Source: Escherichia coli 042 (GTDB lineage Bacteria; Pseudomonadota; Gammaproteobacteria; Enterobacterales; Enterobacteriaceae). From it: DNA of 64,000 nucleotides. The first letter of the stretch is position 1. Every line of letters starts with the position of its first letter. The stretch lies in NCBI RefSeq assembly GCF_000027125.1, contig NC_017626.1; one strand, given 5' to 3'. Position numbers: made by a program. Shown here piece after piece: positions 33,001 through 36,000 of this stretch.

Positions 33001-36000
33001 GCGCCGGAGCAGTACCTCTGGATCCACCGTCGCTTTAAAACGCGCCCGGTGGGTGAATCGTCGTTATACATTTAACAAACTGCTCTTACTCTTTCCCTCC
33101 TCAAATCAGCCATAATAACCTCATGGTTTTTATGGCTTTTTTCTTAAGGTTTTTTCCTTCGCTGAATCTCTAATTATTACCGTCAGAAATTAAACTGTCG
33201 CCGATATGAGACACCTGTAAGTTACTAAAAGTAAATAAGAAAATGCCTCTTGTCTCGTTTCAGTTTTAGGCGTACATTAGCGCCGTCTCGAGCAGTTTAG
33301 CTCAGAATTCTGGGGTGATGCCCACGGTAAAATACGGACTTTCAATGTCGTTTTGCCCGGTGTCAACTCACTGTATCAGGTGTAATGAAGTCATTCAGGC
33401 GTAACAGTAATTACGCGGAGAGATGTAAAGTGAAATATTTCTTTATGGGCATTTCTTTTATGGTCATCGTTTGGGCCGGTACTTTTGCCCTGATGATCTA
33501 AAAGCAAACTGTGCAATGAAAAACAGGAGCCATCTGGCTCCTGTTTGCATTTCTGACGACGATTTTTTATTCCGCGTTTTCGTGAATATGTTTGCTGCTG
33601 GCGGGTAGTAAACCGTCGGCACGGAACATCGCTTTAATCCCACGAATCGCCTGACGAATACGGTCTCGGTTTTCAATCAGTGCAAAGCGAACATGCGTGT
33701 CGCCGTAGTCGCCAAAGCCGATCCCCGGAGAGACACAGACCTTCGCTTCGTTAAGCAGTTTCTTGGCAAATTCCAGTGAGCCCATGGCCGCATATGGTTC
33801 CGGGATTTTCGCCCAGACATACATCGAAGCCTTCGGCATTTCGACCATCCAGCCCGCTTCATGCAGCCCTTTAACCAGTACATCGCGGCGGCGTTTGTAC
33901 TGTTCGGCAATGTCGCACACGCACTGTTGATCGCCCTCCAGCGCCGCAATTGCCGCTACCTGCAACGGCGTAAAGGTGCCGTAATCGTGATAGCTTTTAA
34001 TACGTGCCAACGCGCTGACCAGCGTTTTGTTACCGACCATAAAGCCGATACGCCAGCCCGCCATGTTGTAGCTTTTCGACAGCGTAAAGAACTCTACCGC
34101 CACATCGCGTGCGCCCGGCACCTGCATGATTGACGGCGCTTTCCAGCCATCGTAGACGATATCGGCATAGGCCAGGTCATGGACCACCAGCACATCGTAG
34201 CGTTTCGCCAGCGCCACAACCTTCTCAAAGAATTCCAGTTCCACGCATTGCGCGGTTGGGTTCGACGGGAAGCCGAGGAGCATCATCTTCGGTTTCGGAT
34301 AACTTTCACGAATGGCGCGTTCCAGTTCGTTGAAGAAATCGACACCTTCCACCAGCGGCACTGAGCGTACCTGCGCCCCGGCAATCACCGCGCCGTAAAT
34401 ATGAATCGGGTAGCTTGGATTAGGCACCAGTACAGTGTCACCATGATCCAGCGTCGCCAGCATCAGATGCGCCAGTCCCTCTTTCGAACCAATGGTGACG
34501 ATAGCCTCTGATTCCGGGTCGATCTCAACGTCGTAGCGATCCTGATACCAGCGGGAAATGGCGCGACGTAACCGCGGAATGCCGCGTGACGTGGAGTAAC
34601 CATGCGTGTCCGGGCGCTGGGCCACCGTACATAATTTTTCGACGATGTGCGGCGGAGTCGCACCGTCCGGGTTACCCATACTGAAATCGATAATATCTTC
34701 GCCGCGCCGACGCGCAGCCATTTTCAGTTCAGCGGTAATATTAAAAACGTAGGGCGGGAGACGATCAATGCGCGTAAAGCGACGTTCAGGGCGAGTGTCA
34801 GCCATAATTTCCTCAGATTAACGTTAGCGCCCGGACCGTCCGAGCGACGCTGCCACGATGGTGGCTGTTTTGAAAATAGCCTGATTAATTTCTGTCTGTC
34901 CAGCGTTTTAGAACATTTTTATCAATGGCTTTAAATGAGGAACTCTGCTTTAAAAACAGGAAATTTATCTATGCTAACAAGAAAATTACCACTCAAATTA
35001 TTAACATTATAATTTCAATAAATTTACCAATCAGAAGTGCATTATCAAGAGATGCATTGCTAATACACCATTTATCTTTCAATCCCCTTTTAAAATTGTG
35101 GTTTTTCCTCAAAAATGGCCTGCTGGTCATCAGCCTTCAGGTTACCTATCATAGAGGTTTAATCCTTATTCAGAGTCACCCGTGCACGAAATATTCAACA
35201 TGCTGCTAGCGGTCTTCGATCGGGCAGCGTTAATGCTTATCTGCCTGTTCTTTCTCATCCGTATCCGCCTGTTTCGCGAACTGTTGCACAAGTCGGCGCA
35301 CTCCCCAAAAGAGCTGCTCGCTGTTACCGCCATTTTCTCGCTGTTCGCCCTGTTCAGCACCTGGTCCGGCGTTCCCGTAGAAGGCTCGCTGGTGAACGTA
35401 CGTATTATCGCGGTGATGTCAGGCGGGATTCTGTTTGGCCCGTGGGTAGGCATTATTACCGGCGTGATCGCAGGTATTCACCGTTATTTAATTGATATCG
35501 GCGGCGTGACGGCGATCCCCTGCTTTATCACCAGCATTCTGGCGGGTTGTATATCGGGCTGGATCAACCTGAAAATCCCTAAAGCACAGCGCTGGCGCGT
35601 CGGTATTCTCGGCGGCATGTTATGTGAAACGTTGACCATGATTCTGGTGATTGTCTGGGCACCAACTACCGCATTGGGGATCGATATCGTCTCTAAAATC
35701 GGGATTCCAATGATCCTCGGTAGCGTCTGTATCGGCTTTATTGTGCTGCTGGTGCAAAGCGTTGAGGGCGAAAAAGAGGCCAGCGCCGCGCGGCAGGCCA
35801 AGCTGGCGCTGGATATCGCCAACAAAACGCTACCGCTGTTTCGCCATGTCAATAGCGAGTCATTACGCAAAGTTTGTGAAATTATTCGCGATGATATTCA
35901 CGCCGATGCGGTGGCGATTACTAATACCGATCATGTGCTGGCCTATGTCGGCGTGGGCGAACACAACTATCAGAATGGCGATGACTTCATTAGCCCGACT

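Follow-up and report, generated by a model that had tools for sequence, protein, structure and literature searches.

The window analyzed here, 64,000 nt of Escherichia coli 042 (contig NC_017626.1), contains a very short gene in the interval between lpxP (32155-33075, plus strand), which lies upstream of it, and alaC, which lies downstream on the opposite strand:

33430 to 33501, plus strand: ypdK coding sequence, with a GTG start, 23 codons and a TAA stop, encoding MKYFFMGISFMVIVWAGTFALMI
33567 to 34805, minus strand: alaC (alanine transaminase), convergent with ypdK and its sole conserved neighbor

In the window sequence, the ORF reads GTG AAA TAT ... ATC TAA and its product is (M)KYFFMGISFMVIVWAGTFALMI. 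It shows 0 differences from the RefSeq ypdK of E. coli C4 (WP_010723117.1), and 0 differences over the ORF, promoter, and ribosome-binding site from ypdK of K-12 MG1655 (b4680), which is annotated as "membrane protein YpdK" and also occupies the chromosomal interval between lpxP and alaC. Against the NCBIfam equivalog NF033437, the window peptide scores 57.5 bits (cut-off 30) and aligns over residues 1-23 of the 23-position profile, while Pantoea-type and Serratia-type orthologues likewise exceed the cut-off with 53.4 and 55.4 bits, respectively. The UniRef and NCBI entries for the exact peptide carry the name YpdK as well. We are virtually certain that this ORF is ypdK itself and that it is a genuine protein-coding gene. 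A sequence-only reading of the region had described a "ypdK-like" ORF for a tiny hydrophobic peptide between these two genes, started by GTG and 23 codons long. Its coordinates, plus strand, and GTG-to-TAA extent were all recovered exactly, the neighbors are as it described, the hydrophobicity is borne out by a GRAVY value of 1.73, and the non-ATG start is upheld by the presence of GTG in 75 of 75 sequences together with the conserved placement of a GGAG motif. It was also right that length-thresholded ORF calling misses such genes, as a 60-aa threshold would drop a 23-codon frame. Both of the checks it suggested have favorable answers: the frame is conserved across the Enterobacteriaceae and beyond (74/78 loci), and experimental detection has been published, since Hemm et al. 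2008 included YpdK in their set of 18 small membrane proteins, according to the text citing that study in PMC3009722. In the supplements of the Salmonella small-protein census, ypdK is unmentioned. The gene has been part of E. coli annotation since 2008-2009 and is already catalogued; hence, the observation is correct but not new and has no discovery value. It does serve as a positive control, demonstrating that a sequence-only reading can detect a true 23-codon gene with a non-ATG start.

We found ypdK in 5,422 of 5,426 complete E. coli genomes, at a median of one place per genome. A ypdK-like frame is also present in 74 of 80 alaC-anchored Enterobacterales loci. Two of the six loci lacking the frame are interrupted by contig ends, which leaves 78 assessable loci, and in 74 of these ypdK is positioned tail-to-tail with alaC. 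The motif search and an unbiased Smith-Waterman scan agreed on these 74 loci. The upstream side of the gene is variable: lpxP is found there only in Escherichia, Citrobacter, Salmonella, Enterobacter, Leclercia, and Lelliottia, whereas Klebsiella, Raoultella, Kluyvera, Phytobacter, Buttiauxella, Pantoea, Serratia, and others have unrelated genes at this position. No matches to ypdK were detected in phages, and it occurs in 14 of 72,556 plasmid records, with at least four of those listed being 4-5 Mb in size and likely mislabelled chromosomes. Phages lack the gene, and true plasmids essentially do as well; it resides on the chromosome in one copy, and its synteny extends across the order.

Throughout the compared sequences, YpdK is 23-24 aa long. 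The codon-position entropies of ypdK are 0.52, 0.17, and 1.09 bits for positions 1, 2, and 3, respectively, the third position being the most variable, and its mean pN/pS is 0.26. Among 39 distinct YpdK proteins, residues Y3, M6, G7, S9, G17, T18, and F19 are invariant. A frame antisense to ypdK is open in many species, but it was rejected as a gene, as neither its length nor its register is conserved among them.

The sequences surrounding the ORF delimit a separate transcription unit, which is composed of the following elements:

33108 to 33146, plus strand: intrinsic terminator of lpxP (-15.8 kcal/mol, z -5.5), followed by UUUUUU
33158 to 33249, no strand assigned: conserved promoter-upstream block, with an A/T-rich stretch beside the -35 and an inverted repeat, TGTCG-N8-CGACA
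33250 to 33278, plus strand: inferred ypdK promoter, with -35 TTGTCT (33250-33255), a 17-nt spacer, and -10 TACATT (33273-33278)
33521 to 33549, no strand assigned: two-way intrinsic terminator common to ypdK and alaC, with arms at 33521-33532 and 33535-33546

The lpxP terminator insulates ypdK from lpxP, and published Term-seq data include a 3' end 67 nt past the lpxP stop. At the distal end, the common terminator is a perfect 12-nt inverted repeat (-22.5 kcal/mol, z -4.6 on the plus strand), and published K-12 Term-seq data place the primary 3' end of ypdK 48 nt past its stop, with the mRNA ending near 33549. The transcription start is predicted near 33285, after a GC-rich AGCGCC stretch, as placed by conservation and a low-resolution array boundary: in a published K-12 tiling array, the ypdK transcript begins 148 nt upstream of the GTG, compared with the predicted 146 nt. 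The published transcript 5' and 3' ends agree with these boundaries. ypdK is monocistronic, having its own promoter and its own mRNA of ~265 nt, and this transcript increases twofold after UV. Apart from the two terminators, the intergenic region 33076-33566 contains a single inverted repeat, a 10-nt pair (33181-33190 / 33549-33558) that flanks the ypdK unit and is at about chance level. The layout also differs from that of an attenuator leader peptide, since the terminator hairpin lies 19 nt past ypdK and is followed by the 3' end of the convergent alaC.

The putative promoter is recognizable mainly by comparison. In 61 loci, those of Pantoea and Serratia among them, TA[C/A/G]ATTAG occurs at a distance of 75-200 nt ahead of the GTG, and the spacer is fixed in length and variable in sequence across loci. 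The E. coli promoter scores 8/12, which is under the threshold of the promoter scanner, while at the homologous place in Serratia the scanner detects TTGAAA-18-TACATT. The upstream block is 75-88% identical among genera, also where the upstream gene is not lpxP, and its TGTCG-N8-CGACA repeat lies at 33196-33213, with a degenerate right arm in the window. The block may contain regulator binding sites and/or an UP element. By-eye matches to CRP, Cra, CpxR, LexA, YpdB, sigma-54, sigma-32, sigma-E, and FliA motifs within the block were considered and none was convincing or conserved, and a promoter-like site on the minus strand (33201-33173) was discarded due to a -10 that is not conserved in other genera. 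As a side observation, besides the A/T-rich upstream stretch and the conserved palindrome, the promoter has a GC-rich stretch after the -10 that resembles growth-rate or stringent-controlled promoters.

Between the predicted start and the GTG lies a leader of ~145 nt (33285-33429), which is twice the length of the ORF and includes these elements:

33286 to 33306, plus strand: helix P1, a 5'-proximal hairpin, from the single-sequence fold
33311 to 33370, plus strand: helix P2, ~33311-33322 paired with 33359-33370 and enclosing P3, from the single-sequence fold
33326 to 33357, plus strand: hairpin P3, variable, inside P2
33399 to 33416, plus strand: helix P4 (GCGTAA / TTACGC), a hairpin ending directly at the Shine-Dalgarno sequence (-6.5 kcal/mol)
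33417 to 33422, plus strand: Shine-Dalgarno sequence GGAGAG, 7 nt before the GTG

Across the leader helices, 88.9% of alignment cells are paired, compared with 28-46% when the partners are slid, and 0 of 500 shuffles reach the observed value. In the 43-sequence alignment, P2 is 95.5% paired, with both-side changes in five of its nine pairs, and P4 is paired in 94.1% of cells, with both-side changes in four of six. P1 forms a hairpin in every genus, but only 74% of its cells are paired in the sequence-based alignment because the register of the hairpin shifts between genera. P3 is deleted in some E. coli and in Pseudocitrobacter, and it contains the five differences between the window and K-12 as well as four of the five leader differences between the window and E. 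coli C4; the window strain carries a rare P3 variant, with 20 of 5,423 E. coli records being ≥99% identical to it over the transcript. Next to P4, the compared ypdK loci have a conserved GGAG 7-8 nt ahead of the GTG, GCGGAG is invariant in the 43-sequence Enterobacteriaceae alignment, and the entropy is 0.6-0.9 bits at -12 to -10 before the GTG, whereas the remainder of the 60 nt upstream has values close to 2 bits. Searching the leader against Rfam 15 returned two chance-level matches (a plastid psbJ 3' UTR and a snoRNA), both far below gathering scores. An annotated E. coli small RNA, Tpke70, has been assigned to the same intergenic region between lpxP and ypdK/alaC. However, the 436 nt published for Tpke70 correspond to the complementary strand of the lpxP 3' end and terminator, running leftward from ~33143 on the minus strand; it is antisense to lpxP and on the opposite strand from the leader, so the two are not the same RNA. 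Several other features within the leader were also set aside. A TCTCTATAATCAG block lacks a -35, is degenerate in E. coli (TGTATC), Citrobacter, and Klebsiella, and is located downstream of the covarying helix P2, with the array transcript beginning upstream of it; it was rejected as the main promoter, though it could be a secondary promoter in some genera. Its CUCUCU as an anti-Shine-Dalgarno sequence was likewise rejected, as it is not conserved in E. coli, and so was an interaction visible in the E. coli fold, in which codons 3-6 pair with the Shine-Dalgarno sequence, as Pantoea-type sequences do not conserve it.

We consider it possible, albeit doubtful, that the leader (33285-33429) is an undescribed cis-regulatory RNA, with covarying helices P1, P2, and P4, that gates translation from the GTG upon a cue, for example a temperature change or the presence of a metabolite, small RNA, or protein, and as such it is possibly a modest new lead. 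The transcript map and leader structure also provide handles for studying ypdK regulation, namely the promoter, the helices, and the start codon. A further step would be to view the RNA as the main functional product, either as a ~265-nt regulatory or dual-function RNA or as a leader sensor, with the ORF being secondary. The length of the leader relative to the ORF, its conservation, and its covarying helices are all compatible with this reading, and given the lack of an Rfam match the element would be an undescribed one. However, the strong constraint at the amino acid level combined with free third codon positions is unexpected if the RNA alone mattered, and the sequence and length of the leader differ widely between families while the peptide hardly changes. 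We regard a primary RNA function as unlikely. A peptide role and an RNA role are not mutually exclusive, and the 265-nt transcript might additionally serve as an RNA regulator.

YpdK itself fits the description of a protein of ≤50 aa with one transmembrane helix, being 23 aa with a predicted single helix, and its hydropathy (a mean of 2.15 over residues 4-23) is consistent with a membrane helix. In our reading of the alignment, the invariant residues are spread around the whole predicted helix, rather than along one face. Such all-face constraint is consistent with burial in a complex or with self-association, while being proof of neither. In the Enterobacteriaceae, Erwiniaceae, and Serratia, this 23-residue helix has barely changed, and its gene invariably has a GTG start preceded by a long structured leader, which clearly points to a specific role. 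In the mechanism we favor, the conserved sigma-70-type promoter (-35 TTGTCT, -10 TACATT) produces the ~265-nt mRNA from near 33285; its ~145-nt structured leader places the last hairpin against the GGAG ribosome-binding site, the invariant GTG initiates translation, and the mRNA ends at the terminator common to the convergent alaC. The identity of the gene, its coding status, its start codon, its transcript boundaries, and its leader helices are shown by the data described above. The product is a 23-residue inner membrane protein consisting essentially of one transmembrane helix, predicted to have its N-terminus (Lys2) in the cytoplasm and its C-terminus outside, and this helix would most likely pack against the transmembrane helices of a larger inner membrane protein or complex, in an accessory or regulatory capacity. 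We infer this role because nearly every position of the helix is constrained and because a single chromosomal copy of the gene has kept its synteny throughout the order. By analogy, AcrZ-AcrB, MgtS-MgtA, MgrB-PhoQ, KdpF-KdpABC, CydX-CydAB, and PmrR-LpxT all similarly involve a protein of <50 aa with a single hydrophobic helix that was overlooked by classical annotation and is conserved in enterobacteria. YpdK differs from the members of this group in having virtually no extramembrane tail, and also from those that are conserved beside and cotranscribed with the partner gene: KdpF and CydX are encoded in operons with their partners, whereas ypdK is not. YpdK is not known to resemble AcrZ, MgtS, MgrB, KdpF, CydX, or PmrR in sequence. 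The gene neighborhood suggests no candidate partner, as the upstream neighbor varies and alaC is convergent and encodes an aminotransferase, which we take to be soluble; the searchable literature yielded no partner, phenotype, or interaction for YpdK. The chance that YpdK works by binding a partner as an accessory or regulatory helix seems to us slightly below even, and the overall explanation, in which identity and coding are combined with this mechanism, is one that we find reasonably probable.

A different membrane role would be that of a type I toxin-like peptide akin to TisB, DinQ, ShoB, ZorO, or Ibs, which would damage the membrane when made and would be silenced by the long structured 5' leader, the weak GTG, and perhaps an antisense RNA. 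The peptide is indeed very small and hydrophobic, its leader is long and structured with a hairpin beside the ribosome-binding site, the weak GTG is invariable, and the twofold increase after UV is reminiscent of tisB and dinQ, which are SOS-induced. The tisB, dinQ, shoB, and zorO mRNAs share with ypdK the arrangement of a long structured 5' leader ahead of a short ORF for a hydrophobic peptide, as well as modest UV induction. Nevertheless, known type I toxins have a patchy distribution, are frequently present in several copies, and are linked to plasmids or prophages, and ypdK has none of this pattern (a median of one copy, 74/78 loci syntenic, no phages), being instead a chromosomal gene under purifying selection and not carried on mobile elements. 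There is also no LexA-box-like CTG-N10-CAG in the promoter as read from its sequence, and the cis intergenic region 33076-33566 has no extended complementarity able to encode an antitoxin RNA, a result with which a trans-encoded RNA would be compatible. A toxin function is, in our estimation, quite improbable. The favored partner-binding role could instead be directed at a neighbor, as the sequence-only reading had implied with its suggestion that small membrane proteins often modulate adjacent membrane enzymes or transporters. YpdK would then be a dedicated modulator of LpxP, the cold-induced palmitoleoyl transferase. In E. coli, lpxP and ypdK are direct neighbors with the same orientation, and there is a precedent in PmrR, which acts on LpxT. 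However, modulation of an adjacent enzyme finds no support because the lpxP linkage is not conserved, being limited to certain genera while others keep ypdK beside unrelated genes. Furthermore, a strong terminator and ~350 nt separate the two genes, ypdK has a separate promoter, and the remaining neighbor is a convergent aminotransferase gene. We consider this suggestion highly improbable.

The choice of start codon has an alternative in an upstream ATG at 33385, from which our mechanical ORF listing starts the ypdK frame, giving it a length of 38 aa. In E. coli, no stop interrupts the frame from this position onward, some GenBank annotations use the longer form, and 18 members of the public-database cluster are annotated as 33-39 aa, mostly 38. 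This extension is not conserved, however, as 35 of 75 sequences have an in-frame stop two codons ahead of the GTG and just 12 of 75 contain any in-frame ATG upstream of it, which supports the GTG rather than the ATG as the start. In addition, the conserved GGAG is spaced for the GTG, and 23 aa is the length used by both RefSeq and NCBIfam. We therefore hold a 38-aa product to be hardly credible. Finally, frames of this length are common by chance, with 64 ORFs of at least 20 aa overlapping the surrounding 4 kb, such that the 23-codon ORF on its own is not beyond chance, but the idea that it is a chance intergenic ORF is refuted by its conservation pattern, in addition to the curated family and the published detection (Hemm et al. 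2008, cited in PMC3009722), and it is the comparative data that make the gene real.

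The sequence-only reading had described a GTG-initiated, hydrophobic, ypdK-like micro-ORF of 23 codons between lpxP and alaC, all of which was borne out. The frame reads GTG AAA TAT TTC TTT ATG GGC ATT TCT TTT ATG GTC ATC GTT TGG GCC GGT ACT TTT GCC CTG ATG ATC TAA (window 33430-33501, + strand), i.e. 23 codons plus a stop, and its product, (M)KYFFMGISFMVIVWAGTFALMI, has a GRAVY of 1.73. Its neighbors are:

32155-33075, + strand, lpxP, upstream of ypdK
33567-34805, - strand, alaC, downstream of ypdK

An ORF of this size is by itself unremarkable. At least 20 aa are encoded by each of 64 ORFs overlapping the surrounding 4 kb, and in a mechanical ORF list, the ypdK frame opens at the ATG at 33385 and is 38 aa long; therefore, whether the gene is real and where it starts both needed testing. 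The identification is right and the micro-ORF is the already known gene ypdK, as it has 0 differences from the annotated ypdK of both E. coli C4 (WP_010723117.1) and K-12 MG1655 (b4680, YP_002791250.1). The 23-aa sequence has an entry in a public protein collection (exact look-up) and belongs to the NCBIfam YpdK equivalog NF033437 (57.5 bits; cut-off 30 bits), while a search of Pfam placed it in no family. Megablast detects region 33100-33700 in 5,422 of the 5,426 complete E. coli genomes; among the matches listed, every record annotates the ORF as "ypdK: membrane protein YpdK". A later paper (PMC3009722) cites Hemm et al. 2008 for a set of 18 small membrane proteins that includes YpdK. Its function is uncharacterized in the searched literature, where it is mentioned only in the original catalogue, a UV array study, as a prophage insertion-site landmark, and in a machine-learning feature list.

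Conservation of the frame across the Enterobacteriaceae had been proposed as a check of the micro-ORF. We anchored the homologue search on AlaC rather than YpdK, because absence of ypdK should then also be visible, and compared 80 Enterobacterales loci, one genome per species. An unbiased six-frame Smith-Waterman scan found a YpdK-like segment in 74 of these 80 loci, just 3' of alaC on the opposite strand, and a motif search returned the identical 74. Among the six loci without a match, two (codenamed L003 and L021) are cut off by the end of the contig before ypdK would be reached, and ypdK is missing from the other four (Erwinia endophytica, Symbiopectobacterium, Lonsdalea, and Pectobacterium). 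Including the window, there are 75 sequences (68 distinct at the nucleotide level), every one of which has a GTG start and a length of 23 or 24 codons. Mean entropies of 0.52, 0.17, and 1.09 bits at codon positions 1, 2, and 3 are as they should be if the frame is translated, and mean pN and pS were 0.151 and 0.588, respectively (ratio 0.26). The 39 distinct proteins share invariant Y3, M6, G7, S9, G17, T18, and F19 and nearly invariant K2, W15, L21, and M22. Hemm and colleagues reportedly showed a tagged YpdK protein.

The 60 nt 5' of the GTG are near random (~2 bits), except for GGAG at -13 to -8. The 38-aa form from ATG 33385, which is annotated in some GenBank records, was rejected as the conserved product, since a stop lies in frame two codons 5' of the GTG in 35/75 sequences and any in-frame upstream ATG exists in only 12/75; we regard it as extremely improbable that this form is the real product. 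Internal Met6 was ruled out as the start by synonymous changes in codons 2-5, the amino acids of which are conserved (K2 and Y3 invariant). Many species also have one open antisense frame, with wobble positions coinciding with those of the sense frame, and it was rejected as a conserved ORF because its open-segment length (28-64 aa) and register both vary. That ypdK is merely a chance ORF, as its size alone would allow, has a practically nil probability next to the codon-level constraint. An out-of-frame ATG-TAA start-stop (33423-33428) was also noted between the Shine-Dalgarno sequence and the GTG. Its ATG (in GATG) is kept in nearly all Enterobacteriaceae orthologues, the next codon is a stop only in Escherichia, and with 2 nt separating it from GGAG, it is too close for an obvious start.

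lpxP ends at a strong intrinsic terminator of -15.8 kcal/mol (z -5.5), formed by 33108-33137 and the U tract that follows, and a Term-seq 3' end maps to it in K-12, so ypdK requires its own promoter. A promoter scanner reported no + strand ypdK promoter in this region of the window. Between genera, a 165-bp block (about 33158-33325) retains 75-88% identity, even with an upstream gene that is divergent or unrelated to lpxP, and the comparison points to the promoter elements listed here with two hairpins of the transcript:

33250-33255, + strand, predicted ypdK -35 element TTGTCT (overlapping the motif CTTGTC), from cross-genus comparison
33273-33278, + strand, predicted ypdK -10 element TACATT (within GCGTACATTAG), from cross-genus comparison
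33399-33416, + strand, leader hairpin P4, GCGTAA/TTACGC, ending exactly at the start of GGAG
33521-33546, terminator hairpin with perfect 12-bp arms, -22.5 kcal/mol, z -4.6

The spacer between the putative elements is fixed in length and variable in sequence, and a -10 of the form TA[C/A/G]ATT occurs 75-200 nt 5' of the GTG in 61 loci, including Pantoea, Mixta, and Serratia; at the same place in Serratia, the scanner reports TTGAAA-18-TACATT (0.3 expected by chance). Transcription is predicted to start near 33285, with a leader of 145 nt (146 nt in K-12). Published K-12 transcript ends agree with the predicted boundaries: a tiling-array study found a + strand transcript from 148 nt 5' of the GTG, which rose by 1.06 log2 after UV, and Term-seq placed the primary 3' end 48 nt past the stop, which is window 33549, directly after the terminator hairpin. 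Thus, the ypdK mRNA would be about 265 nt and monocistronic. Read from the minus strand, this terminator hairpin has UUUUU behind it and terminates alaC. In Serratia (loci L073 and L075, leader about 180 nt), the ypdK-alaC distance is about 700 nt instead of about 65 nt, so tail-to-tail terminator sharing is not universal.

Upstream of the -35, the DNA has one A/T-rich stretch and also holds the inverted repeat TGTCG-N8-CGACA (33196-33213). This repeat never covaries, which is more suggestive of a site bound by protein than of RNA. The -10 is followed by an invariant, GC-rich AGCGCC. It is reminiscent of growth-rate or stringent-controlled promoters, a kind to which the ypdK promoter may conceivably belong. 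A direct repeat, TT(T/C)AGGCGTA (33265-33274 and 33394-33403, 129 nt apart), is kept in other genera in both copies, the first overlapping the first two -10 bases and the second forming the 5' arm of P4. In Salmonella, Enterobacter, Trabulsiella, and others, the leader block TCAACTCACTGTATCAG (33363-33379) takes the form TCAGCTCTCTATAATCAG, which includes a perfect TATAAT. There it may act as a second promoter; alternatively, it may be a single-stranded RNA motif under conservation. E. coli, Citrobacter, and Klebsiella have a degenerate version. The whole unit, between the conserved block at one end and the terminator at the other, is flanked by a perfect inverted repeat of 10 nt, CGTCAGAAAT / ATTTCTGACG (33181-33190 and 33549-33558), which is probably a coincidence, given about 0.1 expected by chance in that stretch.

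Folded as a single sequence, the E. coli leader (33285-33429) forms, in 5' to 3' order, hairpin P1, a long helix (P2) around a variable hairpin (P3), and then P4. In an RNAalifold consensus of 43 distinct Enterobacteriaceae leaders, P2 and P4 reappear, with double changes in 9 of 12 predicted pairs. The P1+P2+P4 structure has 88.9% of cells paired vs 28-46% with partners slid by 1-3 columns, and 0 of 500 shuffles reached the observed pairing or covariation score. P2 and P4 are 95.5% and 94.1% paired, respectively, while P1 occurs in each genus with a shifting register, so its 74% is understated by the sequence-based alignment. P3 is deleted in one E. coli (L002) and in Pseudocitrobacter. All five of the window's differences from K-12 fall within it, and those of strain 042 from most E. 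coli cluster there (33289-33360). This leader variant is rare, with 20 of 5,423 records at least 99% identical over the transcript. An Rfam search matched the leader to no family. It is also not Tpke70, an uncharacterized small RNA that is annotated in this intergenic region. The published 436-nt Tpke70 sequence corresponds to the opposite strand of the 3' end of lpxP with its terminator (about 32708-33143, - strand), which makes Tpke70 antisense to lpxP and places it outside the ypdK transcript. A weak promoter-like site, GCGACA-17-AATAAT, lies on the minus strand (33201-33173), just 5' of the annotated Tpke70 start.

The conserved promoter and covarying 145-nt leader may be a novelty, as neither is described in the searched literature, whose scope left out RegulonDB, EcoCyc, and the primary small-protein papers. 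Conceivably, although we lean against it, the leader is an undescribed cis-regulatory RNA controlling translation of an invariant GTG-started micro-protein. A primarily RNA-level function for ypdK is unlikely given the amino-acid-level constraint on YpdK, and would in any case be compatible with a peptide role rather than exclusive of it.

ypdK encodes a conserved, translated single-helix peptide from its own regulated transcript with a structured leader. An N-in/C-out topology is suggested by the only basic residue being N-terminal and by the acidic C-terminal residue of most 24-aa variants, and invariant residues spread around the whole helix suggest that it is enclosed by other helices, in either a partner complex or a homo-oligomer. 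In the best-supported model, to which we give slightly less than an even chance, YpdK would serve a larger inner-membrane protein as its accessory or regulatory helix, a role like that of AcrZ, MgtS, MgrB, KdpF, or CydX. A type I toxin-like peptide would fit the long leader, GTG start, and UV induction, but is improbable in view of order-wide synteny, purifying selection, no antitoxin signature being found in the intergenic region, and absence from mobile elements. None of 50,697 phage records carries ypdK. Among 72,556 "plasmid" records, only 14 do, and at least four of those listed are 4-5 Mb and thus likely mislabelled chromosomes.

The sequence-only reading had also suggested modulation of an adjacent membrane enzyme, which the neighborhood does not support. 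lpxP is upstream only in Escherichia, Citrobacter (which carries an additional inserted gene), Salmonella, Enterobacter, Leclercia, and Lelliottia, while other genes, some divergent, occupy this position in Klebsiella, Raoultella, Kluyvera, Phytobacter, Buttiauxella, Cedecea, Pantoea, Erwinia, Mixta, and Serratia. An LpxP-specific modulator, suggested by adjacency in E. coli, is therefore very unlikely. The sole conserved neighbor is the convergent aminotransferase gene alaC, and since AlaC is soluble and the upstream genes vary, gene order gives no YpdK partner.

Elsewhere in the window, a 2,066-aa ORF (20023-26223, - strand), absent from K-12 at that position, matches annotated UpaE, a phase-variable autotransporter adhesin, and an IS1 transposase lies close by; 243 of 5,426 genomes match at least 80% of the stretch that was queried.
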